Positions 1-24,000 of a DNA stretch of 24,000 nt are shown here, piece after piece. Origin of the DNA: Calothrix sp. HK-06 (GTDB taxonomy: Bacteria > Cyanobacteriota > Cyanobacteriia > Cyanobacteriales > Nostocaceae). A program made the position numbers and the translations under genes. The first letter of the stretch is position 1. Every line of letters begins with the position of its first letter. The DNA is taken from the NCBI GenBank assembly GCA_001904745.1, contig MRCD01000119.1, positions 1,749 through 25,748 on the forward strand. Direction: 5' to 3'. The notes beneath the pieces were generated by a model that saw only the letters and a list, made by a program, of their open reading frames with translations, searched no databases and was not told where the DNA came from.

Positions 1-233
1 CATCACTAACTGAAATACGAAATAGATTGATTCACGGTGGGAGGTTTGAGAAAGCAGAGTATGAAGCGTTAGTTTGTGCTAAGACTCACCTTAAATGGAC
101 ATTAGAACGTTGTATTCTACGGGTGCTAGATTGGGATATTGAAAAATCCAACGTGCGCCCTTTATTTCTGAAGCACTATGTTAGCTACAATGAGTGGGAG
201 CAAAAGAGGAGCCTTTTAAGCCATATTAGTTGA
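1..233 (+). CDS. 3' end of a larger ORF running off the left edge; HEPN-like C-terminal region
   Basis: The frame of the tracked 27..233 ORF stays open back to nt 3 (SLTEIRNRLIHGGRFE...), so the TTG at 27 is probably not the true start. The translated IRNRLIHG has R-x4-H spacing, as in HEPN RNase motifs. Stop TGA at 231-233. Confidence 0.4.
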   Translation, partial: SLTEIRNRLIHGGRFEKAEYEALVCAKTHLKWTLERCILRVLDWDIEKSNVRPLFLKHYVSYNEWEQKRSLLSHIS

Positions 234-636
234 TTTCATGCTTCAGTTATCAGTAGTTGTTCCAACGCGGCATAATAACCTGGTTGAAATTGGCTGTTAA
301 GATATTTTGGTGGATTGCAAAGACTGTTTACAGCCGCTCATCAAGCCACCTAACGGTGCGCTTGAGTTGTGGGTGGGGATAAGTAGTCGAGAAGTTGCCT
401 GTTAGTATTTGGAATCAAGTGCTACAAGGTTATTGAGGTTGAGCCGAGATAACTATATTTTCGGAAATTGAGGGTTGAAACGCTTACCCTACCTTCTTTT
501 GATAATTTGCTACTTTATTGTACGTAACATGATTTCCAGTAACGAAAAATCAAGCATTTCAAGCCTCTATTTCCGTTCTCGTCCGTATCTCGGATCAACC
601 TCCCGTAGGCGCCGCTACATAATTTATAAGTCTCAG

Positions 637-816
637 TTAGTCGAATTTCAGATTCCTCCTCATGCGTTCCGGCATTTGGGCAATTTGTGCATCAAGGTGG
701 GCGATGAGTTTGTCCATCATCGCGTTTCCTTCTTGTATTTCAGCGCACGTTTTTCTTAATCCTTCCAGGTGTTTTTGTCGAACTTCCAGTGGTGGAATAA
801 CTTTTTTCTTATCCAT
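637..816 (-). CDS. small hypothetical protein (59 aa), second gene of a two-gene cassette
   Basis: ATG at 816 (MDKKKVIPP...) is preceded by GGAG at 6-nt spacing. It overlaps the stop of the upstream ORF in a TAATG junction. The tracked start at 828 is a TTG. Confidence 0.45.
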   Translation of the reverse strand: MDKKKVIPPLEVRQKHLEGLRKTCAEIQEGNAMMDKLIAHLDAQIAQMPERMRRNLKFD

Positions 817-1112
817 TACAATCTCCAATTATTGATTATTTCTTCGATACTGCTAACCCGCGCTGGAACCTTTGCTTCATTGTACATGAGTGTTTCTTCC
901 AGCATATTAGCAGTGGCAATGTCAGCATATGGTTGAATTGTAGTAATTCTTAGTGTAATGGCATTTAGCCTTTTAAACCTATCCGTTGCATCTGTCACTA
1001 CACCTGCAAGTGTATCTGGGTAATACTTCAATGCTTCGTACTGGTCATGCTTATGTTGGTGCCAGTGCCGAAGTTGAAATTGCTTCGATACTGGATAAAG
1101 AATTGAAACCAT
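816..1112 (-). CDS. hypothetical protein (98 aa), first gene of the cassette; start uncertain
   Basis: Translationally coupled to 637..816 through a TAATG overlap. Its first about 80 nt overlap the divergent NERD gene start, so the real start may be internal (a TTG lies at about 1031). No recognisable motif. Confidence 0.35.
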   Translation of the reverse strand: MVSILYPVSKQFQLRHWHQHKHDQYEALKYYPDTLAGVVTDATDRFKRLNAITLRITTIQPYADIATANMLEETLMYNEAKVPARVSSIEEIINNWRL

Positions 1113-1471
1113 CAGGATGGCGCATTGAACATAATTTTAACTTTCCCCGACATGGTGACATTGATGTAGTGCTACTTTCACCTGCATCGCGCGTGTATTG
1201 TATTGACGTGAAATCGCACGAAGGCACGAAACAGTTTATCAATGGTCATTTAGTACGTATGTATAACAAGAATGTTTACTCATTCAAAGAGGGCGATTTA
1301 TTGGAGAAGGTGCGGTTTCAAGCTGATTATGTATCGCAATTAATGAATACTAAGTGTACACCCATACTATGCTTTACCCAGTCGGATGTGGATATTAAGG
1401 GTAATATGGCGAATGGTATCTATGTTTTAAGTAAAAGTAATTTGGTCGATATCCTTAAGAAACTAGGCTAG
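1031..1471 (+). CDS. NERD (nuclease-related domain) protein
   Basis: GASAEVEIASILDKEL...GWRIEHNFNFPRHGDIDVVLLSPASRVYCIDVKSHEG matches the NERD pattern (G..GE...L, then g-IDhvvi...vfviEvK..G). The ATG at 1031 was chosen over the tracked start at 986. Confidence 0.6.
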   Translation: MLRTGHAYVGASAEVEIASILDKELKPSGWRIEHNFNFPRHGDIDVVLLSPASRVYCIDVKSHEGTKQFINGHLVRMYNKNVYSFKEGDLLEKVRFQADYVSQLMNTKCTPILCFTQSDVDIKGNMANGIYVLSKSNLVDILKKLG

Positions 1472-1513
1472 TTAACAGCTTTTTCCACCTAATTCAATAT
1501 CTAACAAAGCAAC

Positions 1514-1543
1514 AGGGGGCTAAAGTGAGTCCCCTTTTTCTTT
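1514..1543 (+). terminator. weak hairpin plus T-run after the NERD gene
   Basis: AGGGG(1514-1518)...CCCCT(1531-1535), 5-bp stem and 12-nt loop, followed by TTTTCTTT. Confidence 0.3.
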
Positions 1544-2277: not shown

Positions 2278-2851
2278 TGAGATTGTTTCGGCTTGCACTT
2301 TATTAGAATTAAAAGTTGATGGAGACCAATTATCACCTGACACGGTTAGCGTTCTCAACAATGTGAAAGCGGTTGCCGATAAGGGAAATATTAGTTTTTT
2401 GGAAGCAGCACAGCATGTAGCTAATATGAAAAATGGTGAGGGTAGCGCGCAGCAAAGCAATAGGTTTAGCAAGCGTGAGTATATCAAGCAGCGTTTTGGA
2501 GTTGACCCAGAAGCTGCGGCGCCAGGTAGTTTTATATGGATGCTTTATCAAGATGTCAATATTCAATCTGAGCAATTGGGTGAAGTGAGGTATCAGACAG
2601 TAATTGAAGCTTCATCGCATGTACTTCGCGATAGATTGATGAATGGAAATCCTGAAGAAGCGAATAACGAAGGGTTTGAGCAAGCGAATAGTCGTGTGTC
2701 GGAGAATATTACAAGTTTTTTGGGAAACGTCAATTGGGGGGAGTTGCCACAGTTGATGGGGTCATCGACACAACCTACCAAACAGTTGCAAGCGGCGCCT
2801 GCATCGACATCGAAGACTCCTACATCAGCGAAGAAGTCATCAGACAAGTGA
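2228..2851 (+). CDS. hypothetical protein (207 aa), S/T/K-rich C-terminus
   Basis: GGAG lies 8 nt upstream of the ATGATG start. The stop overlaps the next start (TGATG at 2849-2853). Confidence 0.55.
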   Translation: MMLHINQVVSELRVQRDEIVSACTLLELKVDGDQLSPDTVSVLNNVKAVADKGNISFLEAAQHVANMKNGEGSAQQSNRFSKREYIKQRFGVDPEAAAPGSFIWMLYQDVNIQSEQLGEVRYQTVIEASSHVLRDRLMNGNPEEANNEGFEQANSRVSENITSFLGNVNWGELPQLMGSSTQPTKQLQAAPASTSKTPTSAKKSSDK

Positions 2852-3117: not shown

Positions 3118-3331
3118 TTTTCTTGTTAATGCAGTGACTGGTTTGGCGGCAAATTCACTGATTAATAGCTTGGTGGGTATTGCGACTGGTGTAGGCGCCG
3201 CTATTGCTTTGCATCCTGTGCTTATTGCAAGTGGAGTGATTGTTGGGGGGACAGCGATAGCTACAATGCGTTCCCTAATAAAAAAATATGAGCGCCCAGT
3301 GTTGGAAGTTATTCAGGGAGGGTTAGAGTAA
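3104..3331 (+). CDS. small hydrophobic membrane protein (75 aa)
   Basis: Gly/Ala/Ile-rich, with two predicted TM helices. The stop overlaps the next start (TAATG at 3329-3333). Confidence 0.6.
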   Translation: MAGFDFLVNAVTGLAANSLINSLVGIATGVGAAIALHPVLIASGVIVGGTAIATMRSLIKKYERPVLEVIQGGLE

Positions 3332-4224
3332 TGGTGCCTAATAAAAAAAAGACCGACTTATTGGGTGTGCTTGATGGCAAGAAGATAAAAAAAATCAATC
3401 CACTTGTACTGACTTCTATTGTTGGTTCACTGTTTACGCTTGTTGCGGTTTTGATGGTATTGAAAGTTTCTGCTGATAAGCGTAACGAATTAGCTAGCGT
3501 GAATAGCCTTTCGTCTCAGTCGGCGCAGGTAGTACAAGCTCGCGAGAATTTCTTGACAACACGCAAAGCCTACGTTGAAAAGTTAAACCGAACTGATTAT
3601 TCGACAAACATAAGGACTAACATTAACTCTGCCAGTGGTGAAGGAGTTCAAACAGGGTGGCGCCAATTAGCAGGTGCAAAATGGTCACAAGATATAAAAT
3701 CGGATTTGAGTAATTTACGGAACGACCCCAAACATCCTTTATATCGGACGGGTGAAACACCAGCACTAGAAGTTTTGAAACTTCAAACACTTGGTACATT
3801 ATCTGAAATTGCAGCAGGTAATACGACCTTCTATGTTGGATACGTCAAAACAGATGGCACAAAAGTCGAGCAAAAACTTTCAACTGGCGCCGCTGCTTAC
3901 TTAACGCTGGGTAAATTGGAAGCAATTGATTTGGCTAATACTTTGGAATCGATACCTGAAGTTAATTTTTCGTTGATGTTGAATGACATTGGAAAAGTCA
4001 ACGAGTCGTATGTATTAGCGCTGCGTGGTTATTTGCAAGCACAAGGGTACAAAGACCCAGTAGACCAATTAGGTGATGCAAGGAAGACGGCTGATGAAAT
4101 TCAGCTTTTACAGGATTTGAAAAATCAAAAGTTGCGTGATATCCAACAGCCATCACAACCACAAGGCATTCAAAAGTTTGCACCTGAACCACGACCTGTA
4201 ATAAGGAGGAATCAAAATGATTGA
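3331..4224 (+). CDS. N-terminally anchored hypothetical protein (297 aa)
   Basis: GGGAGGG RBS upstream. Single TM segment (LVLTSIVGSLFTLVAVLMVL) followed by a soluble domain. Confidence 0.65.
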   Translation: MVPNKKKTDLLGVLDGKKIKKINPLVLTSIVGSLFTLVAVLMVLKVSADKRNELASVNSLSSQSAQVVQARENFLTTRKAYVEKLNRTDYSTNIRTNINSASGEGVQTGWRQLAGAKWSQDIKSDLSNLRNDPKHPLYRTGETPALEVLKLQTLGTLSEIAAGNTTFYVGYVKTDGTKVEQKLSTGAAAYLTLGKLEAIDLANTLESIPEVNFSLMLNDIGKVNESYVLALRGYLQAQGYKDPVDQLGDARKTADEIQLLQDLKNQKLRDIQQPSQPQGIQKFAPEPRPVIRRNQND

Positions 4225-4717
4225 TGTTTTGATGCGTCCATCAATTGTTTTAAAGTTGTTTGGCGCCACTATTTTTGCAGGATTGTCTTTATATAATCTC
4301 GTGTCTTCGAGCGACCAAGTGTTGATTCGGTCAGCTAATTCAAATAGTTCACGCACTGAGGTACGGGTATTTGAATCTCCTAGCCGCAATTTAAATTTGA
4401 TTAGTGGCATAGCATTTGGGGCGGTATCTATTGGATTAATTTATTTTGGTTTGAAGGAATACAACAATGTGGTAGAGGAGTTAGGGGATATTGAATGTGC
4501 TATGCAGCAAGAGGAAGACCACCCCCAATTACAACAGCCAGTGCAGCAACAAATTGTACAACCACAGCCATCTGCACCACATGTTGTACAACCATCGGTT
4601 GAGTTGGGTAACAAACCATATTTAAGGTTAGTACCACCAATTACGGCTGATGGTACATCACTGACTCCGCCTTCGGATTTTATGGAAGATATGGAAGCGA
4701 AAGATTTTTGGGAATAA
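4217..4717 (+). CDS. membrane protein with Q/P-rich linker (166 aa)
   Basis: AAGGAGG RBS. Two TM segments, then QQPVQQQIVQPQPSAPHVVQP. 8-nt overlap with the upstream gene. Confidence 0.6.
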   Translation: MIDVLMRPSIVLKLFGATIFAGLSLYNLVSSSDQVLIRSANSNSSRTEVRVFESPSRNLNLISGIAFGAVSIGLIYFGLKEYNNVVEELGDIECAMQQEEDHPQLQQPVQQQIVQPQPSAPHVVQPSVELGNKPYLRLVPPITADGTSLTPPSDFMEDMEAKDFWE

Positions 4718-4745
4718 CGACACAGTTTAAACAAGGAAAATTGGA

Positions 4746-5288: not shown

Positions 5289-5599
5289 TGATTATGTGGA
5301 GTAGATTGACTTTCTGGAGTGTTTTTGCGGCATTTATTTTGAATATTTTGCAACCAGGGTACATGCAATTTTATGACGTGCGTAAACCAATGCTTGCTCT
5401 TTTAACTAATTTGAAAGTGCCAGCGACTAAGGAAGCAAACCAATCTCAAGAAAATGCGGCTAAAACACCTGAGTCAAGTTCTACTCCACCACCAACTCCC
5501 TCACCAACTCCTAAATCTACGTGTCAACCACCAAAGAATGATTACGACCGAATACTTTTCGCGCAAGGAATAGGAGAATGTAATGCGTCTGGTGATTGA
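5288..5599 (+). CDS. small membrane protein with P/T/S-rich tail (103 aa)
   Basis: N-terminal TM (FWSVFAAFILNIL), then SSSTPPPTPSPTPKS. Coupled on both sides. Confidence 0.55.
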   Translation: MIMWSRLTFWSVFAAFILNILQPGYMQFYDVRKPMLALLTNLKVPATKEANQSQENAAKTPESSSTPPPTPSPTPKSTCQPPKNDYDRILFAQGIGECNASGD

Positions 5600-6449
5600 T
5601 TTAAGTCGTACTCATAACGATAATGATGAATTGGTTGTTGATAATCAGTTAGTAGATACGGATGATACTGATGTTGAAGATAGTAGCGGTAAATGGTTGT
5701 TGCCACTTTTAACCTGTGGTTTAGCGATTGCGATTGTGGTTAGACCAGTATCCGAGTTAGTTAAAACGGCGCCACCCGTTGTTTGGCTACAAAGTCAAGT
5801 TGGTACATTAACATCCACGTCTAATCAGCAAACTTCAATAGTTGCTAATCGTTTATATGCGGCAATGCAGCGTAAAGGCTATCCAATAGCTAAAGGTAAG
5901 GGTGAAACTAACATTATTTATGTACGTGGTGGGGATATTAACGGTCAGCCTACAGGTAATCGTATAAATGAATGGTCAGACGCGCGCTTTGTGTTGATGT
6001 TCCGTGGTGGGCAACCATATATTGCGGGGAAGTGGAAAGCGACGATTAAGCCAGGGCTTCCTGCAATTAGGAATCCATTAGGTAAGCGTGGTGCGGCGTT
6101 TATTGAGGATGGTTACTACAAAGCATGGCGCCTGGGTATTCATCAAGGGATATTTGGAAGAAGAGAGCGTGGTTTGGTGCAAGTGGCGCCAGTAAACTTT
6201 CGTCGTGATGTTAATCGTGATGGAAATGTATCGGGCGAGCCAGTACAAAATGGAATGATTGGGCTTAACCAGCATTCTGGTAGTAATAATAGAGAGGTTG
6301 ATAAAACTTCATATGCCTGTCTGGTAGCACAGTCAAGTGAAGGTCACTTAGAGGAATTTGTACCATTACTTGAAAACGACCCTCGTTACAAAACGAATTC
6401 GCAGCATATGTTTGGGACTGCGATATTAAGTATTGGCAACTTACGATGA
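5583..6449 (+). CDS. membrane-anchored putative cell-wall-active enzyme (YkuD-like His...Cys signature)
   Basis: Short N-terminus (MRLVIDL...) plus a TM helix, then a domain ending in GLNQHSG-x10-SYACLV. This resembles the H...S-x-G-C catalytic pattern of L,D-transpeptidase-fold proteins. The family assignment is tentative. Confidence 0.6.
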   Translation: MRLVIDLSRTHNDNDELVVDNQLVDTDDTDVEDSSGKWLLPLLTCGLAIAIVVRPVSELVKTAPPVVWLQSQVGTLTSTSNQQTSIVANRLYAAMQRKGYPIAKGKGETNIIYVRGGDINGQPTGNRINEWSDARFVLMFRGGQPYIAGKWKATIKPGLPAIRNPLGKRGAAFIEDGYYKAWRLGIHQGIFGRRERGLVQVAPVNFRRDVNRDGNVSGEPVQNGMIGLNQHSGSNNREVDKTSYACLVAQSSEGHLEEFVPLLENDPRYKTNSQHMFGTAILSIGNLR

Positions 6450-7078
6450 AATTAGTAGTCGATTTTGAAGGTGGTAGTAACCCACGTCCGAAACGGGGTA
6501 AAAAGCAATCGAGTGGTAAATTAGGTGATGCCAATTGGCAGACAGCAGTATTAACGGGATTGATGGTTGCTGGAATAGTAGTTCCTCAATTTTCAGCAAC
6601 ATTGAAAGGGATTTTTGCTTTATCTGATAGCGCAGTAGAAACAACAGAAATCAATACTGGCTCGGAATCTGTTAAGTTTCGACTACCTGTAGCAAAGGGT
6701 GTATCTACTACATCAGAGTATGGGTGGCGTACTCACCCAATTACAGGGCAACGTAAGTTTCATGCAGGTCTTGATTTTGGTGCGGCGTATGGACAACCTA
6801 TTTATGCAGCGGCGCCGGGAGTAGTCACCTTTGCTGGAGAGAAAGGTGGATACGGCAATACTGTAGAGGTTAAGCATAATAATCGCGAATCAACATTATA
6901 TGGACATGCAAGTAAATTGATGGTGAGTGTTGGGCAACGAGTAGCACAAGGGCAGGTAATTGCACTTGTTGGTAGTACAGGATTTTCAACGGGTCCACAT
7001 TTACATTTTGAAGTGCATATCAACGGGCAACATACTAATCCCCGACCATTTTTAGGTAATCAAATAGCAGGTAGGTAA
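6446..7078 (+). CDS. membrane-anchored M23 family metallopeptidase
   Basis: HAGLDFGAAYGQPIYAAAPGVV...GYGNTVEVKH...GSTGFSTGPHLHFEVHING carries the HxxxD and HxH motifs of M23/LytM peptidases. N-terminus MKLVVDF... plus a TM helix. ATGA overlap with the upstream gene. Confidence 0.9.
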   Translation: MKLVVDFEGGSNPRPKRGKKQSSGKLGDANWQTAVLTGLMVAGIVVPQFSATLKGIFALSDSAVETTEINTGSESVKFRLPVAKGVSTTSEYGWRTHPITGQRKFHAGLDFGAAYGQPIYAAAPGVVTFAGEKGGYGNTVEVKHNNRESTLYGHASKLMVSVGQRVAQGQVIALVGSTGFSTGPHLHFEVHINGQHTNPRPFLGNQIAGR

Positions 7079-7079
7079 T

Positions 7080-8045
7080 ATGGTTGAGAAATTAGTACTA
7101 GGAGGAATAGCTGGGAGCGTAATAGGTGTTGGTATTGCGTATGGTTTTGCGTCATTACCATGTGGTTTAGTTTCAAAACCTGCGGATAAAGTATGCTACG
7201 TGCGCGCGTTTAATAAATCATTAGATGCGTGGAAGATTGGGTGTTTGGGTGGGGTAATAATTGGGTTAACACTTAGTAATAGTAATAAGCAGCGTCGATT
7301 TAAGTTTCAGCCCATGCATTTATCAATAGTAGGTATTTTGGTATTAGTAGGGGCTGTTGCAGCTAATAATAAATCGCTTGGATTTGGAATTACTAATACA
7401 CAATCACTGTTTCAACTTAATAACACTAACAATTTATCTCCTAGAATGAGCGCATTTCTTGCCACGATAAGATGGGCAGAAACGGGTACAAGTGATAAGT
7501 CGAGTTATAATAAATTAGTGTTTAATGGCACTTTTAATGATTTTTCGGCTCACCCTAAGATTAAACAATGCGCTCCAATAAATGGAAAACGTGTTTGTTC
7601 AACTGCTGCTGGTGCTTATCAAATGTTAGATATATCTTGGAATGATGTGGCGCCAAAATTAGGGTTGAAAGATTTTACTCCACCTTCGCAGGATAAAATG
7701 GCAATTGAATATATTCGCCGTAATAAAGCTATAGATGATGTGGAGTCAGGAAATATTGAAATGGCATTTTGTAAGGTAGGAAAGGTATGGGCTAGTTTGA
7801 TTTGTAATAATTATAATCAAAATCCATGGACTACAGAGGAGTTAAAAAATTACTATAATAAACAATTAATTGCTGCGGGTGGTGAGCCAGTCAGCGGTAA
7901 GTCCAGTTGGCGGGAATGGTTTTCTTTCCGGAAAGCTCGCCACGGGGAGTACTCCCTGTGGCAGACTTTCCGCCAAACTGGCGAACCCCAAAGGGGTGGA
8001 AGCTTCTTTCCCGTTGGACTGGCGAACCCAAAGGGAGGTAATTAA
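7080..8045 (+). CDS. membrane-anchored lambda-R-type lytic transglycosylase (GH104-like); 3' end may be an artefactual extension
   Basis: FLATIRWAETGT...YNKLVFNGTFNDFSAHP...STAAGAYQMLDISWNDVAPKLGLKDFTPPSQDKMAIEYI...VWASL aligns motif-for-motif with phage lambda R (FLDMLAWSEGT...DYSDHP...STGAGRYQLL...LGLKDFSPKSQD...IWASL). Three N-terminal TM segments. The last 53 or so codons translate the GC-rich element at 7880-8040. Confidence 0.88.
   Translation: MVEKLVLGGIAGSVIGVGIAYGFASLPCGLVSKPADKVCYVRAFNKSLDAWKIGCLGGVIIGLTLSNSNKQRRFKFQPMHLSIVGILVLVGAVAANNKSLGFGITNTQSLFQLNNTNNLSPRMSAFLATIRWAETGTSDKSSYNKLVFNGTFNDFSAHPKIKQCAPINGKRVCSTAAGAYQMLDISWNDVAPKLGLKDFTPPSQDKMAIEYIRRNKAIDDVESGNIEMAFCKVGKVWASLICNNYNQNPWTTEELKNYYNKQLIAAGGEPVSGKSSWREWFSFRKARHGEYSLWQTFRQTGEPQRGGSFFPVGLANPKGGN
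7880..8040 (+). other. GC-rich, highly structured element at the lysozyme/FtsK gene junction
   Basis: Nested hairpin: GGAAAG(7930-7935)/CTTTCC(7966-7971) encloses GCCACGGGGAG-TA-CTCCCTGTGGC (7939-7962). The outer arms are CCAGTTGGCGG(7903-7913)/CCGCCAAACTGG(7970-7981). A competing CTTTCC sits at 7924-7929. Direct repeats ACTGGCGAACCC(C)AAAGGG at 7977-7996 and 8018-8035. Two forward frames stay open across the element. Confidence 0.5.
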
Positions 8046-10216: not shown

Positions 10217-10682
10217 TTTGATAATGCCTTTACCTCCAACAATGAACGAAATCATCGAAAGCGCGCGTTCGGGGTGGCAAATAAATGCTGCACTAAAAAA
10301 GAAGTGGACTAATTTGATTGGCGCCTTTGTGACTGAGTGCGATTTTGAATTATTGGGTGTGGTGTGGATTGAATTCCATTGGCATTTAAAGAATTATGGG
10401 CGCGATGCAGATAATGTTGCAGCGGCAGCTAAGTTTATTATGGATGGTCTGCAACAAGGTCGGGCGATAAAAAACGATAATCTTACAATTATCCAATCTC
10501 CTGTACCTCATTATTATCATCGTAGCGAAGGTGATGATGGGGTGAAGGTTAGATTGTCTGATACACCAGATTTTTTGTTAGAAAGCTTTATTGATGCGAA
10601 TCAATACTCAAACATTGCTTTAAGTCAACTAAGTAAAAAAATAAGTAAAATCTTGGGAATAGATTCATTCAATGGAGTTTGA
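10206..10682 (+). CDS. rusA: RusA-like Holliday-junction resolvase
   Basis: MIYDLIMPLPPTMNEI... and GRDADNVAAAAKFIMDGLQQGRAIKNDN parallel E. coli RusA (LPWPPSNN... [25 protein letters not shown]). The ATG at 10206 lies inside the last codons of the FtsK-like gene, which ends at 10216. Confidence 0.72.
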   Translation: MIYDLIMPLPPTMNEIIESARSGWQINAALKKKWTNLIGAFVTECDFELLGVVWIEFHWHLKNYGRDADNVAAAAKFIMDGLQQGRAIKNDNLTIIQSPVPHYYHRSEGDDGVKVRLSDTPDFLLESFIDANQYSNIALSQLSKKISKILGIDSFNGV

Positions 10683-15321: not shown

Positions 15322-15349
15322 AAAATTCATGTAAGCCATTATACAAAAA

Positions 15350-15418: not shown

Positions 15419-15710
15419 AATTGTCATTGCCGCATAAGAAACTCGACTTCCAGCCCAGTTCTTCAAGCAATTTTATGCGCCAAGGCAAATAATCACCAAT
15501 ACATACCAATATATCATGGATAATCCCGTTTGTGTTCATTTATCTTTTGGCGTATATAAATACGTTAATAATTGTATCCATAGATTGTTATTGATAACGA
15601 TTATTATTCGTTTATCGTTGAAAAATGTTGTACATATTTGCTTAAAGTTCCTAACGGTAGAACTTTTCTCCTTTTTAACTAAAAGTAATAGGAGAATATT
15701 GTCAACGACT

Positions 15711-15964
15711 CAGCCCTGAAGGGACTGAAGCTCTTCAGCAACAGCTTGAAGTTTCAAACTTTCAGGTAAAGGAGACCAGACTCAGCACCCGCTACGTTCG
15801 TGGCAAAGTTAAAGAACCTACCTTGGAGTGCGTAGCTAGCTCCAAGCTCTAGAAACAAAAAGTTAAACATGCCTATCTGAGTTATATTGCAAGTGCTTTT
15901 GTATAGTACTGACCACGAACATTGTCAAAGCTAACATCACCCGTTTTACGGAGTTTTTCAAATC
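15711..15964 (+). ncRNA. candidate IscB omega RNA scaffold (5' boundary uncertain)
   Basis: Non-coding, locally structured region abutting the iscB start, which is where omega RNAs are encoded. Local hairpins: CCCT-ga-AGGG, CTGAAG-ct-CTTCAG, GAAGTTT/AAACTTTC and CTTGGAG(15822-15828)/CTCCAAG(15840-15846). Long-range pair: GTTCGTGG(15796-15803)/CCACGAAC(15913-15920). Confidence 0.5.
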
Positions 15965-17239
15965 ATGTCCAATTACGTTTTTGTCATTGATACAAACAAA
16001 AAACCTTGTAACCCGGTTCACCCAGCAGTTGCGAGAAAATTATTAAAGGAGAAGCAAGCCGCTGTATTTAGACGATTCCCGTTTACCTTGATTCTTAAAA
16101 TCAAGTTAACTGAACCAACACGAGAAATTCAACTCAAAATTGACCCTGGTTCTAAAACAACAGGGATTGCTTTAACTCAAGGTTCTTACGTTATTTGGGG
16201 AGCCGAACTTACACATCGAGGTGGAATAATAAAAGACGCATTACAATCACGCCGTTCGTTACGTCGTAGTAGAAGAAACCGTCATACTCGGTATCGTCAA
16301 CCTAAGTTTTTAAATCGAACAAGACGTGATGATTGGTTAGCACCAAGTTTGCAACATCGAGTTGAAACAACTATTACATGGGTAAACAAGTTAATCAAAT
16401 TTGTACCAATTACTGGAATATCTCAAGAGTTAGTTAGATTTGATTTGCAACAAATTGAGAATCCGGAAATATCAGGAACTGAGTATCAGCAAGGAGAGTT
16501 AGTAGGTTACGAAGTTCGTGAGTATCTACTTAACAAGTGGGATAGAAAATGTAGTTATTGTGGGATACAAAATGTTCCATTACAAATCGAGCATATTCGC
16601 TGCATAGCCAAGGGGGGTACGAATCGAATATCTAATCTATGTTTAGCCTGCGAGTCTTGCAATCTTAAAAAGGGAACACAAGACATTGAAGATTTCTTAG
16701 TTAAGAAGCCTCTTGTATTGAAACAAATTTTATCTCAGGCGAAAAGACCATTAAAAGATGCAGCAGCAGTGAATTCGACTCGATGGGCATTGTTTAATCG
16801 ACTCAAAAAAACAGGATTACTAGTTACTACTGGTTCTGGAGGACTAACTAAGTTTAATCGAACTCGCTTAAATTTAGAAAAAACTCATTGGCTAGATGCC
16901 GCCTGTGTTGGAAAAGTAGACACCTTGAAAGTTTTAACTAAAAAGCCACTAATAATTAAATCAACTGGACACGGAACGAGGCAACAATGTAGAACTGATA
17001 AATTTGGCTTTCCGAGTAGATACTGTTCTATAAACAAGTTTCATTTTGGTTTTCAAACTGGCGATATCGTTAAGGCAATAGTTAAAACAGGCAAAAAAAT
17101 CGGAAATTATATTGGTCGAATTGCAACACGTTCAACAGGTAGTTTTAACATTTCAACTAGTAATGGATTAGTTCAAGGTATTTCTCATAAATACTGTAAA
17201 GCTATCCATAAAAAAGACGGTTACAACTACTCAAATTGA
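15965..17239 (+). CDS. iscB: IscB (RuvC-HNH, OMEGA-type RNA-guided nuclease), apparently intact
   Basis: N-terminal PLMP-like VFVIDTNKKPCNPVHPAVARKLLKEKQAAVFRRFPFTLIL. RuvC-I KIDPGSKTTGIAL (D60). Arg-rich bridge helix RRSLRRSRRNRHTRYR. RuvC-II ISQELVRFD (E155). HNH CSYCG...LQIEHI...NLCLACESCNLKKG. RuvC-III THWLDAACVG (H308/D311). C-terminal GFQTGDIVKA...GRIATRSTGSF barrel. Confidence 0.92.
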   Translation: MSNYVFVIDTNKKPCNPVHPAVARKLLKEKQAAVFRRFPFTLILKIKLTEPTREIQLKIDPGSKTTGIALTQGSYVIWGAELTHRGGIIKDALQSRRSLRRSRRNRHTRYRQPKFLNRTRRDDWLAPSLQHRVETTITWVNKLIKFVPITGISQELVRFDLQQIENPEISGTEYQQGELVGYEVREYLLNKWDRKCSYCGIQNVPLQIEHIRCIAKGGTNRISNLCLACESCNLKKGTQDIEDFLVKKPLVLKQILSQAKRPLKDAAAVNSTRWALFNRLKKTGLLVTTGSGGLTKFNRTRLNLEKTHWLDAACVGKVDTLKVLTKKPLIIKSTGHGTRQQCRTDKFGFPSRYCSINKFHFGFQTGDIVKAIVKTGKKIGNYIGRIATRSTGSFNISTSNGLVQGISHKYCKAIHKKDGYNYSN

Positions 17240-17326
17240 TAAAGACTCAAACAGGTTAAAACCTGTTTGGTCGCTTCCCTCTCAGTACGCTCCGTGACTG
17301 AGGAAACTCGCATACCAGGTAATGTT

Positions 17327-18532
17327 ATGAAAAACAACACGGAAATTAAACATTTAAGTCCAAGTGAATTAGTTATTCATGCTGAATTACTGCGTATATA
17401 TGGAGATACCCAAGAGAAGCATGATTTACAGTTAGATATTGAAAAAAATGGCATCATGGTGCCATTAGTCGCATCAACACGTACATCAATCATTACTATT
17501 GTGTCGGGTAGGCGCCGACTACGAGATGCAATTGCGCTCTTGTTTGAATCAGTACCAGTAATTTGTTACCAATTCCCATCCGAGGAAGCGGAAAAACATT
17601 TCATCCTATCCGCTAACCGTGATAGACCCAAAACAAGGTTTCAACAACTGTTGGAAGGGAAGGAATGGGAATCACTTGAAAAACAGGCTGCTGCATTGCG
17701 GCGCCAACAGGGATTAAATCAACGCTGGAAGGATAAAGACATCGAAAAAGGCATTGATGACTCTGAATACTACCCAGTAGCATTGCTAGACAATTATTCC
17801 CCTTCTGACACATCTCAACGGAGTGTCTCTCAAGAGCCACACGAATTAAATAAAAAGCAGAGAGCGACGGATAAAGTAGGTGAACGGATTGGGATGTCGC
17901 GTCATAGTTATGAAAGAGGCAAGCGCGTTATTGAAAAATGTGAAAAATTACGTGATAGGGGTAAGGAGATTGAAGCGTTGGCGCTTGAGATGTATTTGGA
18001 ATCGGCAGGTATTGTACCAGCAAGTGATTTATTGAAGGCACCGAATTGTGACGAGGTTTTGGACTTGTTGGGCAGTGGTCAATCAAAAACTATTGGAGAG
18101 GCATTGTTGAAAGTGTCGCGCGTGAATAGTGCGAGTGCAGTAGTTGAGGGAGCTATATTTTTCTTTCCAGATGACATATTGCGTAAACGGACTTATTACC
18201 ATTCGGGTCGTGTGGTGAAGATAGCTAACATGACTGCGACGGTGTGCTTCCGAGATAGTGTTGATGATGATTTACGTAAACATCAATATAAATGTGATGA
18301 ACTGCTTGCTTTGAATAAAGAAGATGAAAACCTTCACCATCAAAGGTTACGGGATAGGATGAGTCGGTTATTGGTTCATCCTTGTGCTACTGCGAACGAT
18401 AAATATATGTTAAATCGGTTGCTTGGTGCTGTTGTGTGTACGCAGGATGAAGTTGACTGGCTACAGTTCATTGAACGACGTGTTGAAGATTTGGAAATTC
18501 AAAAAACAAGAACTTTGGAGGTAGTATCATGA
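17327..18532 (+). CDS. ParB/Srx-fold N-terminal domain protein with central HTH
   Basis: LSPSELVIHAELLRIYG...LQLDIEKNGIMVPLVAS...IVSGRRRLRDAI matches the ParB N-terminal domain, including the GxRR box. HTH-like ATDKVGERIGMSRHSYERGKRVIE. ATG at 17327 chosen over the tracked TTG at 17267. ATGA overlap with the next gene. Confidence 0.72.
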   Translation: MKNNTEIKHLSPSELVIHAELLRIYGDTQEKHDLQLDIEKNGIMVPLVASTRTSIITIVSGRRRLRDAIALLFESVPVICYQFPSEEAEKHFILSANRDRPKTRFQQLLEGKEWESLEKQAAALRRQQGLNQRWKDKDIEKGIDDSEYYPVALLDNYSPSDTSQRSVSQEPHELNKKQRATDKVGERIGMSRHSYERGKRVIEKCEKLRDRGKEIEALALEMYLESAGIVPASDLLKAPNCDEVLDLLGSGQSKTIGEALLKVSRVNSASAVVEGAIFFFPDDILRKRTYYHSGRVVKIANMTATVCFRDSVDDDLRKHQYKCDELLALNKEDENLHHQRLRDRMSRLLVHPCATANDKYMLNRLLGAVVCTQDEVDWLQFIERRVEDLEIQKTRTLEVVS

Positions 18533-21500
18533 AAATTGCGCGCACTTCAAAACGCAATAGTTGCCGAGTATGTGGTGAACACGATTCAAAATGTGGATGG
18601 GTACCCGATACCAATATTCATTTTTGCATGAATATTAATGATGCAATATCTGCCCCACCTGGATGGAAATATAAAGGGGAAACCCGCAACGGCATGTGGG
18701 GTATATTTGTACCGGATGATGGTAAAAAGTATACTGAAGAAGAAATTGCAGCATACAAACAGCGCAAGGTAGAGGAAGAATTAAAACGGCGGCAACAGCA
18801 CACCCAGTCGTTAAGTGAAGCATCGCGCCATCATGAATTAACCAAGTTGGTTAACCAGTTACCATTAAATGGGCGCCATAGTGAGGATTTGAAGCATCGT
18901 AATTTGAGTGATGAATTGATTTCAAGGGGTAACTTCCGCAGTGTTGGCCAGTTCCAGAAGCTTGATTTTGAACTATCTCATAACCTACCAGGTGCATCTA
19001 TCAATGGTAAATCTCTCACTAACAGATATTCTGGGTACATAGTTCCTATATGGAATGAACATGGTCAAATGGTTGGTTATCAAATACGTAATGATGATAT
19101 TGAGGGTGAAAAGGGCGCCAAATATGTATGGGCAACGAGTAATGCTAACACGCGTAGGTTGAAGGGTGTATCCTCGCACCTGCAAAATGGTGAATTACCT
19201 CTTACCTTCTGCGTGTCCGACAAGTTAAAAAGTCAAATTAACCATGCATTAATTTCAAATACAAATTCAGATCAAAGTGTAAAGCTAAGTCACTGCATCA
19301 ATTTAGCAGAAGGGTTTTTGAAAACATTCATTATTGCCCATTTGCGTGAGCTACTCGTGATAGGCGCCGCAGGTGGTAACTTTGTTGGCAGCATTGAAAC
19401 CTTCAAACGTTACCTTGATGCAGCGAGTCTTATGTTGGGTGGAACGAAAGAGGTAGTATTATGGGCAGATGCAGGCGCCATAGCGAATAAGCACGTAATG
19501 CGCCAGTATAGAAAAACCTACTCAGTATTAAGAAGGTGGGGCTATAGCTTACAAATAGCATGGTGGGGTCAAATCGATAAAAACTGCCTTGATGGGGATG
19601 AGTACCTGGGTGATTATGAGTTGATTAGCTGGTACGAGTTTGAATCAATGTCGCCCAACCCTAGCAGTATATTGAGGGAAGTTGAAAAGTTATTCAATCT
19701 TACTAAAAAACATTTATTCCGCAATAAATCAAAAACTGCCTTTGTCCCTAATGTAAAACAGGTAAATACATATCAATATGTACCAGGAAACCTGCCTACT
19801 TACGAAGACTATTTGGAAATGGGGTGTCCTTCCATCATTTATAAAAATGATGAACGTGCGACTATATGGAAAGAGGCAGAGTTAAAAGGATGGAAACATA
19901 TACTCGACTTTTCGGCACCAGGACTCGGTAAATCCCATACAGTAGGTAGTCTTACTGCTGAGTATATGGGTATGAACCAGTTGATGTATTTGGCATCAGA
20001 CCACCGTAACCCAACTACTATTACGATTGAAAAGAACTTTGTTGATGTGTTTCCCCGTCATGGTGGGTTAGAAAAAGACCCCACACGTCGAACACCTTTA
20101 GGTAAAGAGTTTCTTATACATAGTGATGGGAGCAGTGTTCGTGAAAAGACTAAAAGCAATTGCGCGCGTCACGAATTATTTGCGATTGCCAGAAAGAAAA
20201 ATATTGACCTTGAAGCTAGTGATGAAGGGATATGCCAAGGATGTAATTTATACGCATCATGTCAGAAAGGGGTGGGTGATAATTTTGGTTATTTGTCTGA
20301 TAGAGCTAGAGCATTAAGAAACCCACAAATTAGGCTACACCCGGATAGCACACCTTTACCAAGTAATTATGAATATGAGAGAGTGCTTGTTATTTGGGAT
20401 GAGACATCAGTATTGATGCGTAGTAAACTTAAAATTGATGTAAGACTTAGTGACATATATCAGTCGTTGGGGGCAATAATTGCAGCATTTGAAGAAACGA
20501 AGTCAATGGGTCGTGACTTCAACGTGTCGGATTCAATATCTCCCTTATTGATAATTACTCACGTATTGTTGAAACTGTTTGAAATACCTAAAAGTGAATT
20601 GGGTAGGTATGGGCTAAGTGATAGTGATATCCGTGAATTGTTGGGTGTGGCGCCAACTGAAACGTATCAAGAAATAGCAATTTTATTGGATAATCCACCT
20701 AACTTAGACTTTTTGAGCGAACAATCGGATAGAATTGACACATCAAAGTTATCCGCTGCTGATAAGCGTGGTGTGGGCAAATTCAATAAATTATTGCGTG
20801 GTGAGCATAATGATGACGCACGTGAGAAATTGGAAGCATTACCACTAAATTGGTTAGTACAGTTTATGGAAGTATGGGCAGGTTATACACCTGGATGCTT
20901 TACTTTCAACTTGGGCGTGTTTACCATACACCAATTTGATAGGCGCCACCGGGATGTAGCAGACGCAGCTGCATCCAATATTTATCTCGATGGTACAATG
21001 CCTGTTGAAAATCTTGCTTTGAAATTAGGCGTGCCACGCTCTAATATATTGGTGCTAAAAACTGAAACACCTGATTATTCCAACCTGGAAATAATACACA
21101 TCCCAGATATGGGAGTACTGAGTCGTGACCGTAGGGATTCTCAACAAGTTCGTGTTGATGCACTACGTGAAGCAATTCTTAATCTTGAAAGCAAGAAGTC
21201 AGATAATGCCATAGTTGGTTGTATTGAACGCAAAGCATTTGCTCGTGAGGGTGATGGGTATCATTTCCGCGATAGTCGGGGTATAAATAGGTTCAGTAAT
21301 GCAACTGCGATAATCGGTATTGGGGCACCTTATGCAAATATAGGGGAAATGCAAGCCGAATATCACCTATTACAAAAAGATAAATGTAAACGCGACGCAG
21401 CGAATTTAAGCAGTATGGGATTGCTGTTGAATTTGCTTTTATATTTGACAGTGGATGATATAGCGTTAATGTTGGCACCATTGTATGAAGTAGATTGTAG

Positions 21501-22188
21501 TAAGCAGGAATATATAGATAAGTTAGTGGATGCGGAGATATTGCAGGAAGTAGGGAGACTGCGTTCCCACCTGCGTCGTGATGAGTTGCTGACTTATTAT
21601 TTTGTGGGTGAATATGAGTTGGGAAAAGTTTTAAATGAGTTGCCGGGTGTGAAGTATACGTGTAGGGAGTCGTGTGAGTATTCGATAAAAGCTTGTGGTG
21701 GAACTAGGCGCCTGGAATTGATGGTTTGTAATGCTATTGGTGCAGTAATGTCAATGGGTATTGAGTCACCGACACAGAAACAAGTTATAGCTGAGATTGA
21801 AAATAAGAGCGACTACGGGAAAGTAAGTCAGGGTCGTATAAGTCAGGTGATGCAGCGGTTCGGGGGATGGGGCGCCATCTTGAAATTAGTGCGTAATGTG
21901 CTACTTGGAGTGAGGGAGTTTCCTTGTACTGATAACTCGTTTGATGATGAGAGATGGATAATAGAGACTTACTTGCCATTGATACTTGAGACAGCTGTCG
22001 ATGACCCAGTAGAAGCTGCACGCAAGTTGGTGGGTATAGCGGTCGTGCATGGATGGGGCGCTTTGAAGAAATGTATCAGTAGTGTTTCCTATGAATTACA
22101 GCAACAACTTGTAGATTTAGTGTTGGGGTTATATGCACTTTTTGATGCTGGGGGTATTGAGGAGTTAGCGGCTTTGGGAACTGAATGA
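18529..22188 (+). CDS. large plasmid replication protein: Zn-finger + TOPRIM-like (DUF3854-type) + P-loop helicase-type NTPase
   Basis: N-terminal CRVCGEHDSKCGW. GYIVPIWNEHGQMVGYQIRNDD...KYVW. LAEGFLKTFIIA and VLWADAG resemble TOPRIM E and DxD-type motifs. Walker A FSAPGLGKSHTVG and Walker B VLVIWDETS. This architecture resembles the primase-helicase Rep proteins described for cyanobacterial plasmids (from memory, not a search). Confidence 0.75.
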   Translation: MKIARTSKRNSCRVCGEHDSKCGWVPDTNIHFCMNINDAISAPPGWKYKGETRNGMWGIFVPDDGKKYTEEEIAAYKQRKVEEELKRRQQHTQSLSEASRHHELTKLVNQLPLNGRHSEDLKHRNLSDELISRGNFRSVGQFQKLDFELSHNLPGASINGKSLTNRYSGYIVPIWNEHGQMVGYQIRNDDIEGEKGAKYVWATSNANTRRLKGVSSHLQNGELPLTFCVSDKLKSQINHALISNTNSDQSVKLSHCINLAEGFLKTFIIAHLRELLVIGAAGGNFVGSIETFKRYLDAASLMLGGTKEVVLWADAGAIANKHVMRQYRKTYSVLRRWGYSLQIAWWGQIDKNCLDGDEYLGDYELISWYEFESMSPNPSSILREVEKLFNLTKKHLFRNKSKTAFVPNVKQVNTYQYVPGNLPTYEDYLEMGCPSIIYKNDERATIWKEAELKGWKHILDFSAPGLGKSHTVGSLTAEYMGMNQLMYLASDHRNPTTITIEKNFVDVFPRHGGLEKDPTRRTPLGKEFLIHSDGSSVREKTKSNCARHELFAIARKKNIDLEASDEGICQGCNLYASCQKGVGDNFGYLSDRARALRNPQIRLHPDSTPLPSNYEYERVLVIWDETSVLMRSKLKIDVRLSDIYQSLGAIIAAFEETKSMGRDFNVSDSISPLLIITHVLLKLFEIPKSELGRYGLSDSDIRELLGVAPTETYQEIAILLDNPPNLDFLSEQSDRIDTSKLSAADKRGVGKFNKLLRGEHNDDAREKLEALPLNWLVQFMEVWAGYTPGCFTFNLGVFTIHQFDRRHRDVADAAASNIYLDGTMPVENLALKLGVPRSNILVLKTETPDYSNLEIIHIPDMGVLSRDRRDSQQVRVDALREAILNLESKKSDNAIVGCIERKAFAREGDGYHFRDSRGINRFSNATAIIGIGAPYANIGEMQAEYHLLQKDKCKRDAANLSSMGLLLNLLLYLTVDDIALMLAPLYEVDCSKQEYIDKLVDAEILQEVGRLRSHLRRDELLTYYFVGEYELGKVLNELPGVKYTCRESCEYSIKACGGTRRLELMVCNAIGAVMSMGIESPTQKQVIAEIENKSDYGKVSQGRISQVMQRFGGWGAILKLVRNVLLGVREFPCTDNSFDDERWIIETYLPLILETAVDDPVEAARKLVGIAVVHGWGALKKCISSVSYELQQQLVDLVLGLYALFDAGGIEELAALGTE

Positions 22189-22340
22189 TGAAATAGGCGC
22201 CCTTGTTTAATGTAACAGCGTTATTCAAAAATCCTCATGCTGCGGTATGAGCAATTTACTGTGCTGACTTTTTATCCTCATATGTCACTTTACCCTGTAA
22301 CTATACCCAAAAGTTTTCTGGGCATGGAAGCATAAGTGTA

Positions 22341-22522
22341 ACTTAAAGGAAAAAGTGGCCGAAATTAAAGCATAAAATGACCGCAGTCCAAAACCTATAG
22401 TAGAAAAGGATTTGAGAGAGTTGAATGCGCGAACTTACAGAATATGATAACGGAATAACAAGCATTTCAGATTACTAAGGGTGGCCACTTTATCCTTTAA
22501 AAACGGCCACTTTATCTTTTAA
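22341..22522. repeat. iteron-like 18-20-bp repeats (candidate Rep binding sites / oriV)
   Basis: GGCCACTTTATCCTTTAA (22483-22500) and GGCCACTTTATCTTTTAA (22505-22522) are direct repeats 22 bp apart. ACTTAAAGGAAAAAGTGGCC (22341-22360) is an inverted copy. A degenerate ACTTTTTATCCT lies near 22266-22280. Confidence 0.55.
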
Positions 22523-23109
22523 GCGACACATTTTTTCTGAATACGCTAAAAAGTTACTGCCATCTGTTGGTTCAAGTCACATCATACATTGTATGAGTAT
22601 TTCCTCTTACAAAGTTAGGCGGGACGGAAACCGACACCGCCTACTTTGCGCTGTCATGTCAATATAAACTCATACGACATGAATTAACCCTATATTATTT
22701 AATTTACACTCCTTCATTGGCGCCTTTAAACTACACGAACCACACTCATATACAAAAATACTCAATATTTCAATGACATTGGTAGTGCTATTCACTACTC
22801 AGTAAATAAAATTATTTAGTATTTATCAATATGGCGCCTTTCAATACATTGAATAAGATGAATAATACGTAAATAAGTAGGTTGAATTATTAGTTTTGTA
22901 TTTATTGCTTTATATACAAAATTAATAATGAGTGATTAGGTACGTCGTAAGTCAACAAACCTACACCATGTCTCACTGTTTTTAAGATTCAATACTTTTT
23001 GTCGTTCGGGATAGCTGACATAACATAGTCTTGGGTCACTGGGGTGGTTTTTCATGATTTGTCCACTCCAGTGATGCGTTCCTTCTCAGGACTGTTACTT
23101 TGAAAAATT

Positions 23110-23502
23110 TTATATTTTAAATTTATCTCCAGCGATTTCTAGCATTATAAATGGTAGAACTTTCTCAGTTTCAAGAATTATTAGTCTTTCTTTAACAGAA
23201 ATTAATCTACACTTTGAAAAATCGCAATTTGATGCTAATTGTGCAGCATAATTTATAAGACTTTTACTATTTTCACTACTAAGTTCAAATATTTCTAACA
23301 ACCCTTTAATTGCTAAAAATTCTATATTTATGATTTCATCCGTATGATTTGTTTCAGGTAATTTAGCTACTATGACACCGGGTTCATTTGCTTCAATAAT
23401 AAAGTCATGTACTTTCCGTAATTTTTTCAAAAGAATACTTAAATTATTAGGTTTTCCATAACTATCTGGATACAACTGTTTACGACGTTTAGCTTCTCCC
23501 AT
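23110..23502 (-). CDS. hypothetical protein (130 aa)
   Basis: AGGAGG lies 6 nt upstream of the second ATG (23502; MGEAKRRKQ...). AT-rich gene with no recognisable motif. Confidence 0.55.
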   Translation of the reverse strand: MGEAKRRKQLYPDSYGKPNNLSILLKKLRKVHDFIIEANEPGVIVAKLPETNHTDEIINIEFLAIKGLLEIFELSSENSKSLINYAAQLASNCDFSKCRLISVKERLIILETEKVLPFIMLEIAGDKFKI

Positions 23503-23595
23503 TGTAGACCTCCTCATTGTCGTTTAAATTATTTATGAAAGTGGTTCTTCTCTTAATTATAGTACCGAATACAGAATAAAATCATTGGCTAATTT

Positions 23596-24000
23596 TTATT
23601 TTGCAAATATACAATATTCAAGTAAGTAATGATATTGAGGTATTGTTGGAATTATAATGATTGTCTGTGTTTTAGTTTTAAAGTTTGGTGCCAATGATTT
23701 TAAGCTTGCTAATTCGTTATCTGATTTTTGTAATTCAGGTGCTTGAGGTGATTGAGGTGTACTTGGATTTAGTTGGCAGGCACGACTTGATGGATAAAGA
23801 ACTGTTAACTTTTTAGGACAGGCTGTACTTTTATCGTTTATCAACTTTCTAGCATCATTAATACTTTTCTCTTTTGCGACCTTTACCGCATTTGTTACTT
23901 CAGATACCTTATCTATCTTGTTTATTTTATATTGAATTAGCATAATCACTGAATGTAGACTCCCATCATAAATATATCGCTTATGTTTGTAAAAATACAT
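23596..24000 (-). CDS. hypothetical protein, possibly truncated by the window edge
   Basis: The ORF reaches the right edge. An ATG sits exactly at 24000-23998, but the true start may lie outside the window. Very AT-rich. Confidence 0.4.
   Translation of the reverse strand: MYFYKHKRYIYDGSLHSVIMLIQYKINKIDKVSEVTNAVKVAKEKSINDARKLINDKSTACPKKLTVLYPSSRACQLNPSTPQSPQAPELQKSDNELASLKSLAPNFKTKTQTIIIIPTIPQYHYLLEYCIFAK

Follow-up and report, generated by a model that had tools for sequence, protein, structure and literature searches.

In a survey of 97 cyanobacterial genomes, Calothrix PCC 7103 and 19 kb of Calothrix D253 were found to be without HIP1, the cyanobacterial octamer GCGATCGC, and to carry the hexamer GGCGCC instead (Elhai 2015, Life 5:921, PMC4390886). 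Such alternate highly iterated palindromes (HIPs) occur at 1000-2000 per Mb, and in PCC 7103 the first unrelated 8-mer stands only at rank 25 (PMC4390886). The same strain shows the most extreme GATC depletion of all, to 16% of expectation, and has a putative GATC restriction enzyme; GACGCC, GGCGTC and GACGTC are depleted as well, a CGATCG methyltransferase gene is partly deleted, and PCC 7103 is the only strain with two GrCGyC methyltransferases (PMC4390886). A mismatch-repair ratchet dependent on G-m5C was proposed to account for the pattern (PMC4390886). Beyond this paper no literature on GGCGCC in cyanobacteria was found, later HIP papers being without mention of it, and no paper on the genome biology of Calothrix sp. 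HK-06 was found. Here we analyze 24,000 nt of an HK-06 contig (38.8% G+C; hereafter the window), a plasmid transfer- or replication-type region in which GGCGCC occurs 33 times where base composition predicts 1.2 copies. GGCGCC is almost certainly the host-wide alternate HIP of a Calothrix lineage, set at about 1.3-1.5 sites per kb on chromosome and plasmids, with HIP1 replaced. A preliminary description of the window treated the pattern as new; for this genus it had been in print since 2015 (PMC4390886). The finding is hence a rediscovery of a pattern already known, extended to other strains and plasmids.

An exact recount returned all of the 33 starts previously listed, with 0 missing and 0 extra. 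Markov models of order 1, 2 and 3 predict 1.8, 1.7 and 5.9 copies, and 100 dinucleotide-preserving shuffles of the window gave 1.66±1.18 copies, the largest value being 5. The maximal-order model (order 4) predicts 19.5 copies, a figure inflated because GGCGC and GCGCC occur almost solely inside GGCGCC (GGCGC is followed by C in 33 of 41 cases, GCGCC is preceded by G in 33 of 39). The excess persists in this comparison as well (z≈6.0), which was the check that the preliminary description had asked for on this replicon. With a ratio of observed to expected copies (O/E) of ~18-28, GGCGCC ranks first among all 6-mers and among the 64 palindromic hexamers. The over-represented 7- and 8-mers all contain GGCGCC and match the Markov expectation built from the hexamer, thus the hexamer is the unit. 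The first 8-mer unrelated to it, here at about rank 28, is a GCGCGC-type word. A lean of the flanks toward T-GGCGCC-A, put at 7 of 33, did not hold up. The word TGGCGCCA was found 6 times, and among 280 pooled Calothrix GGCGCC sites T is not preferred at position -1 (179 versus 174 expected), where only G is depleted (61 versus 106 expected).

The sites are given below with their codon phase and the residues encoded; a dot in brackets stands for the strand, and sequences named for NIES-4105 and PCC 7716 are those at the corresponding position of the two related Calothrix plasmids.

608..613 (.), non-coding
2518..2523 (.), phase 2 (A-A-P)
2794..2799 (.), phase 2 (A-A-P), lost in PCC 7716 (GGTGAG)
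3194..3199 (.), phase 0 (G-A)
3659..3664 (.), phase 1 (W-R-Q)
3886..3891 (.), phase 0 (G-A), probable gain in the window lineage, relatives GGTGCT and GGCGCT
4262..4267 (.), phase 0 (G-A)
5768..5773 (.), phase 2 (T-A-P), GGCACC in both relatives
6127..6132 (.), phase 1 (W-R-L)
6185..6190 (.), phase 2 (V-A-P)
6811..6816 (.), phase 2 (A-A-P), M23 peptidase gene, GGCACC in NIES-4105
7649..7654 (.), phase 2 (V-A-P)
8813..8818 (.), phase 0 (G-A), FtsK/SpoIIIE-like gene, GGTGCC in PCC 7716
8941..8946 (.), phase 2 (K-A-P), FtsK-like gene
10056..10061 (.), phase 1 (W-R-R), FtsK-like gene
10320..10325 (.), phase 0 (G-A)
11213..11218 (.), phase 0 (G-A), AAA-ATPase gene
12880..12885 (.), phase 0 (G-A), GGTGCC in NIES-4105 (loss by CpG transition)
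13575..13580 (.), phase 2 (M-A-P), GGCACC in NIES-4105
13995..14000 (.), phase 2 (R-A-P), last site before a 3.5-kb site-free stretch
17511..17516 (.), phase 1 (R-R-R), ParB-N-like gene, probable gain in the window lineage
17700..17705 (.), phase 1 (R-R-Q), GACGCC in NIES-4105
18872..18877 (.), phase 1 (G-R-H), open reading frame (ORF) of 1219 aa, relatives AATGTC and AGTGTC, gain by multiple substitutions
19114..19119 (.), phase 0 (G-A)
19363..19368 (.), phase 0 (G-A)
19474..19479 (.), phase 0 (G-A), GGCGCT in PCC 7716
20649..20654 (.), phase 2 (V-A-P)
20942..20947 (.), phase 1 (R-R-H)
21707..21712 (.), phase 1 (R-R-L)
21871..21876 (.), phase 0 (G-A)
22196..22201 (.), non-coding
22719..22724 (.), non-coding
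22833..22838 (.), non-coding

Judged against the called genes, 29 of the 33 sites are coding, with 11, 8 and 10 in phases 0, 1 and 2, and 4 are non-coding; the density is 1.41 per kb in coding and 1.19 per kb in non-coding DNA. The use of all three phases and of non-coding DNA had been described before, and the five codon examples worked out at the time are correct. Spacing is Poisson-like (coefficient of variation 1.01), with no periodicity or positional preference in the window, and the site-free gap of 3.5 kb at 13995-17511 is non-significant alone (P≈0.24 as maximum gap). Gly-Ala, Ala-Pro and Arg-rich dipeptides can encode GGCGCC, and 11 of the sites read GGC-GCC, so that the count might be an artefact of amino-acid or codon usage, or else stem from one repeated DNA or protein element. 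However, synonymous-codon shuffling, in which proteins and codon usage were kept, left 6.5±1.6 copies (maximum 12), the 4 fixed non-coding sites included. The word moreover uses three phases and non-coding DNA and is spread across at least 15 different genes, and the flanks of all 33 sites differ and are unrelated. The probability of such an artefact is negligible. The signal lies at the DNA level and is not a peptide motif, as had been proposed; the count is not at Markov level and has no single repeated source, the two outcomes named beforehand as speaking against the pattern. Repetitive extragenic palindromes, miniature inverted-repeat transposable elements and small dispersed repeats do not describe the sites either, given the unrelated flanks and the location of 29 of the 33 inside ORFs.

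The wider composition of the window was compared with that of PCC 7103. GACGCC, GGCGTC and GACGTC occur 0, 0 and 0 times (1.6, 2.2 and 3.0 expected), and in 150 kb of pooled Calothrix DNA there are 4 copies of GACGCC/GGCGTC against 21 expected and 0 of GACGTC against 18. GATC, correctly described as nearly absent, is found only twice in the window, at 593 and 19270, against 82 expected, and stands at 2-13% of expectation across the sampled DNA of HK-06, NIES-4105 and PCC 7716. HIP1 is missing from the window, again as first described, and from ~200 kb of Calothrix DNA. Every compositional part of the PCC 7103 syndrome is thus reproduced in the window and in related Calothrix DNA. The match to PCC 7103 and D253 extends to the word itself, the genus, the density range, the absence of HIP1 and the depletion of GATC, GACGTC, GACGCC and GGCGTC. 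There are also differences: none of the strains considered here (HK-06, NIES-4105, PCC 7716 and the metagenome-assembled genome, MAG, of Calothrix sp. C42_A2020_038) was in the 2015 survey, GGCGCC is here shown explicitly on plasmids, and GATC in the window is at 2% of expectation versus 16% in PCC 7103. Several proteins of the window are identical to NCBI records of Calothrix sp. HK-06 from a 26.1-kb contig, and the sequence recurs in a Logan assembly of run SRR4407853. The DNA closest to the window is that of the 395-kb plasmid1 of NIES-4105 and the 385-kb p1 of PCC 7716, with 91% and 85% identity in a mosaic pattern.

The question whether GGCGCC belongs to the host or to the element was addressed with three 50-kb stretches without homology to the window, taken from NIES-4105 plasmid1, PCC 7716 p1 and PCC 7716 p3. 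They hold 64, 69 and 73 copies of GGCGCC, respectively, against ~2.2 expected, with 0 HIP1 and GATC at ~10% of expectation. The NIES-4105 stretch encodes metal transporters, metE, nrdAB and TonB receptors, and p3, a separate plasmid whose relaxase is of another type, has an equal GGCGCC density. A search with HetR for Calothrix chromosomes returned only Nostoc- or Anabaena-type HetR among the top 120 matches. A 465-kb, chromosomal-scale contig of the C42_A2020_038 MAG was reached from an IscB homologue by way of a metagenome contig and a FeoB homologue; it carries genes for a penicillin-binding protein, a glycogen debranching enzyme, peroxiredoxins and FeoAB, and contains 30 GGCGCC in 21.9 kb (1372/Mb) and 0 HIP1. 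Two metagenome contigs of a related organism hold 11 GGCGCC in 8.8 kb. The density is 1375/Mb in the window and 1198-1580/Mb across all sampled Calothrix loci. The syntenic FtsK-like/M23 clusters of Nostoc PCC 7120 pCC7120beta, Scytonema NIES-4073 plasmid1 and a Tolypothrix PCC 7601 plasmid, in contrast, have 0 GGCGCC and 9-12 HIP1 each per 22 kb, even though gene order is conserved and the FtsK-like protein is 46% identical. A plasmid of Nostoc ATCC 53789 has 32 HIP1 and 0 GGCGCC per 50 kb. The like density across the sampled Calothrix DNA, together with the lack of GGCGCC in the orthologous clusters of HIP1 hosts, shows that the word tracks the host and not the element.

Two meanings had been put forward for the palindrome at the outset, namely a host-wide word tied to a methyltransferase or repair bias, and a recognition word for the element's own FtsK/SpoIIIE-like translocase, ParB-like protein or Rep-like 1219-aa protein. 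The first is favoured by the evidence and the literature, and the accompanying remark that GGCGCC behaves like HIP1 with a different word is supported. The second has in its favour that the window encodes an FtsK/SpoIIIE-family protein, a ParB-N-like protein and a large Rep-like ORF, and FtsK-type translocases do read short DNA words (KOPS, SRS). However, 150 kb of unrelated genes, a second plasmid and a chromosomal-scale contig all show an equal density, and the orthologous cluster of HIP1 hosts is free of the word. Being self-complementary, GGCGCC gives no strand polarity of the kind that guidance by KOPS or SRS needs, and unlike the polar guide words KOPS, SRS and Chi it is not specific to an element. 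Clustering near any origin-like region of the window was not found either. A role as the element's recognition word is therefore very improbable.

GGCGCC and HIP1 have much in common. Both are short, GC-rich palindromes, over-represented ~20-300-fold and present about once per kb, in coding DNA in all frames, in non-coding DNA and on chromosome and plasmids; both track the host and are conserved somewhat above background. Unlike the octamer HIP1, GGCGCC is a hexamer and has no GATC or CGATCG core, so the Dam-like DmtA and DmtC cannot be its cognate methyltransferases; the 24 kb of the window contain 0 CGATCG. The one-mismatch variants of GGCGCC are concentrated at the central CpG, those of HIP1 at outer positions (PMC4390886). 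A link between the two words had been raised as a speculation in the preliminary description; on such a reading GGCGCC would derive from the extended HIP1 (GGCGATCGCC) by loss of the GATC core, and the excision would have accompanied the onset of GATC restriction in the lineage. Indeed, GGCGATCGCC without GATC is exactly GGCGCC, GATC is as scarce as described above, and PCC 7103 combines its putative GATC restriction enzyme with the lowest GATC level (PMC4390886). In ORFs, where 29 of the 33 sites are found and all phases are used, a 4-nt deletion would, however, shift the reading frame. Protein alignments with the Nostocales orthologous clusters showed that 0 of 6 mappable HIP1 positions coincide with GGCGCC, the nearest lying 63 nt away, and that the orthologues have HIP1 at 0 of the 16-17 mapped GGCGCC positions. 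Scarce GATC and abundant GGCGCC can also be separated: the C42 MAG contig combines the full density of GGCGCC with 35% of the expected GATC, and a Scytonematopsis contorta contig has 2 GATC versus 75 expected, 2 HIP1 and 0 GGCGCC. This contrast marks GATC avoidance and GGCGCC enrichment as separate traits. On the frameshift and the positional mismatches the derivation was rejected, and we consider it highly unlikely. No obvious replacement palindrome was seen on the Scytonematopsis contig, which may represent a 'HIP-less' state.

A second enriched class consists of runs of alternating G and C, (GC)n/(CG)n, 6-9 nt long, found in the window at 1188, 2445, 5981, 7202, 8083, 10261, 14898, 18117, 18538 and 20162 and also in the NIES-4105 plasmid1, PCC 7716 p1 and PCC 7716 p3 stretches. 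Runs of at least 6 nt number 81 in 174 kb of Calothrix DNA versus 5 in 116 kb of Nostocales DNA. GCGCGC stands at all nine window positions at which it had been reported, and CCCGGG, CCGCGG and GGGCCC, reported as essentially absent, have 0 copies each. The GCGC core of GGCGCC recurs in GCGCGC and CGCGCG; AGCGCT (1 versus 3.0 expected) and TGCGCA (0 versus 3.0 expected) show no enrichment. Two of the six window positions orthologous to Nostocales HIP1 lie at or near (GC)n runs (2445 and 18117), a small sample which hints that some of these runs are decayed HIP1 sites.

Near-sites and site turnover were then analyzed. Of the nine classes of one-mismatch neighbours of GGCGCC, eight are depleted in 150 kb of Calothrix DNA (O/E 0.05-0.85). 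The only enriched class is GGTGCC/GGCACC, the transition at the central CpG, with 60 copies versus 28 expected (O/E 2.1; 0.35 in the Nostoc control). GGCACC/GGTGCC is also the commonest alternative state at orthologous positions of GGCGCC sites. Between the three plasmids GGCGCC has a retention of 67-75%, compared with 46-58.5% for all other hexamers of the same aligned regions and 38-61% for other hexamers made up of G and C only; each plasmid pair offered 23-29 GGCGCC sites. Three-taxon polarization placed 11 sites in all three plasmids and counted 9 losses, 4 by CpG transition, along with 5 gains; 8 cases were ambiguous. One of the gains lies 3-4 of 6 positions away from the AGTGTC and AATGTC of the relatives. 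GGCGCC sites thus appear to be in a dynamic equilibrium of gain and loss. To judge from these substitutions, the central CpG probably behaves as a hypermutable, 5-methylated cytosine, and outer-position variants would be lost, either because they are converted into GGCGCC or because restriction is avoided.

A mechanism along the lines of the proposed ratchet would run as follows. A host cytosine-5 methyltransferase with GGCGCC specificity would mark the inner C (GG-m5C-GCC), a role which in PCC 7103 could fall to the two GrCGyC enzymes (PMC4390886). Methylation-linked, sequence-biased mismatch correction would then turn near-sites into full sites and restore damaged ones, and all resident DNA would be ratcheted toward the palindrome irrespective of reading frame. 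Deamination of the methylated CpG would steadily erode sites to GGTGCC/GGCACC, so that gains and losses would settle into a dynamic equilibrium. A HIP1-like cellular function under selection might act as an added force. The turnover data fit the ratchet without proving it. The explanation as a whole, an alternate HIP coupled to a methylation-linked repair ratchet, is probably right; that the ratchet is the main cause, we regard as an even bet.

Several points weigh against this explanation. The evidence for host-wide spread comes from related strains and the literature, HK-06 itself being represented by this contig. No methyltransferase or Vsr-like protein is encoded within the 24-kb window. 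The counts of gain and loss are small (~30 sites) and the plasmids are mosaic, so that the polarization is rough. GrCGyC methyltransferases are common in cyanobacteria that avoid all four GrCGyC words (the Nostoc stretch has 0 of each), hence a methyltransferase alone does not explain the enrichment. The machinery of the ratchet is undemonstrated even for HIP1, for which selection has been argued (Xu et al. 2018, PMC5861425). Strong very-short-patch correction of T:G to C:G, moreover, predicts depletion of GGTGCC/GGCACC; their 2.1-fold enrichment weakens a simple very-short-patch model, although it can be read as a decay halo. The best-known precedent is the word bias due to Dcm and Vsr in E. 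coli, where CCWGG is over-represented and CTAG depleted. The concept is the same, a cytosine-5 methyltransferase and site-specific T:G correction that shift word frequencies genome-wide. However, the E. coli effect is modest and that on GGCGCC is ~25-fold, and the T-derivative is depleted in E. coli, whereas in Calothrix it is enriched.

Alternatively, the palindrome may be held mainly by natural selection, with mutation bias secondary, a view compatible with the explanation preferred here. GGCGCC is kept more than the average hexamer and more than other G/C-only hexamers despite its CpG, and HIP1 and its variant GGGATCCC are conserved above neutral expectation (Xu et al. 2018, PMC5861425). 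Biased repair predicts such excess conservation equally, however, and the excess rests on the 23-29 sites per comparison. Coding and non-coding DNA do not differ in site density, and the Poisson-like spacing shows neither periodicity nor positional preference. We therefore hold selection as the main force to be rather unlikely. The same tentative standing applies to its suggested uses, a self-DNA mark that favours recombination or natural transformation, a role recently suggested for HIP1, or a site for a nucleoid or architectural protein; neither a GGCGCC-binding protein nor competence is known in these Calothrix strains. The DNA uptake sequences (DUS) of Neisseria, with ComP as receptor, and the uptake signal sequences (USS) of Pasteurellaceae are non-palindromic words of 9-12 nt. 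GGCGCC resembles them as a host-specific short word present about once per kb in genes and plasmids and as a proposed self-DNA tag, an analogy drawn for HIP1. Unlike DUS and USS, it is palindromic and without known uptake function or receptor.

Part of the site-free gap coincides with an insertion.

15699..17324, + strand, insertion of 1626 nt, absent from both related plasmids (NIES-4105 and PCC 7716)
15701-15940, HEARO/omega RNA (Rfam RF02033, 96.5 bits)
15965-17239, IscB-like ORF with RRXRR and HNH domains

The insertion is an IscB/omega-RNA unit (OMEGA-type, IS200/605-related), with no TnpA in the window. Homologues of its IscB with 74-81% identity, annotated 'RNA-guided endonuclease IscB', are found in Nostoc, Planktothrix and Microcoleus. 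None of the GGCGCC sites falls within the 1626 nt. A copy with 91% protein identity, in a different context in another GGCGCC-type genome (metagenome contig, IscB at 3526-4800), likewise has 0 GGCGCC, with 11 sites in its flanks; for two copies, the probability of a site-free insertion is P≈0.1 per copy. On a HIP1-type 7.65-Mb chromosome, the IscB gene (10001-11275 of the sampled stretch) contains 0 HIP1, and the flanking 20 kb contain 12. The absence of the host palindrome from these three copies is consistent with mobile elements younger than their surroundings, and is suggestive of the insertion in the window being recently arrived DNA, not yet 'HIP-ified'. The called TTG start of the downstream ParB-like ORF, at 17267, falls inside the insertion, and translation therefore probably begins at the ATG at 17327 (NCBI product of 401 aa).

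At the level of domains, the window encodes the following.

M23 peptidase
FtsK/SpoIIIE-family protein (722 aa)
AAA ATPase
NERD nuclease
ParB-N-like protein
ORF of 1219 aa, Rep-like, without Pfam match

Megablast of the window against phages gave no match, an exact look-up of the 722-aa FtsK-like product gave no record, and one contig scan with the FtsK-like protein returned only the NIES-4105 and PCC 7716 plasmids. Positions 1885-22188 form a cluster of ~20 genes with syntenic counterparts on Nostoc PCC 7120 pCC7120beta and on the plasmids of Scytonema and Tolypothrix, whose proteins are 25-67% identical. It comprises small ORFs, the M23 peptidase, a lysozyme-like ORF, the FtsK/SpoIIIE-like protein, the AAA ATPase and the ParB-like protein, most of its members being without Pfam family. 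The cluster looks like a conserved, uncharacterized cyanobacterial plasmid module for transfer or maintenance. Among the window, NIES-4105 and PCC 7716, the closest pair shifts along the alignment; for instance, identity reaches 99.8% between NIES-4105 and PCC 7716 over window positions ~4800-5800, and 99% between the window and NIES-4105 over ~12600-13600. This mosaicism implies that plasmids of different Calothrix strains, from Finland, Japan and India, have recombined. The non-coding region ~22337-22607, downstream of the 1219-aa ORF, contains two copies of an iteron-like direct repeat, GGCCACTTTATC(C/T)TTTAA, with a related GTGGCCGAAATTAAAG upstream of it. Leaving aside the two close relatives, this is where the window alone shows DNA similarity to other cyanobacterial plasmids (Nostoc sp. 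ATCC 53789 pNsp_c at 73-75%, Calothrix PCC 7716 p3 at 84-90%), and the region may be an origin or an oriT-type element.

The purpose and origin of highly iterated palindromes have been open for 30 years, and lineages that have swapped HIP1 for another word are rare and the most informative. The window holds nothing categorically new. It does show that the GGCGCC syndrome reaches at least four more Calothrix genomes and their plasmids, that the host imposes GGCGCC on a conjugation/replication gene cluster which carries HIP1 in other hosts, and that avoidance of GATC and enrichment of GGCGCC can be uncoupled. In annotation, the density of GGCGCC is a signature of the host, by which contigs and plasmids can be assigned to this Calothrix lineage and recently acquired DNA can be flagged. 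By analogy with HIP1, it is a possibility that methylated GGCGCC took over a self-DNA role in recombination or transformation. In a bolder version, to which we give a low probability, the GGCGCC lineage would display HIP genesis in progress, with methylation-driven gain everywhere, a hypermutable methylated CpG, and new DNA, such as the IscB/omega-RNA insertion, that comes in free of sites and fills with residence time. If so, site density would be a clock for horizontally acquired DNA in these genomes, and the three plasmids, 85-91% identical, would allow the substitution spectrum of the ratchet to be measured directly. The main interest of this lineage and its closely related plasmids is thus as a natural experiment on the origin of highly iterated palindromes.

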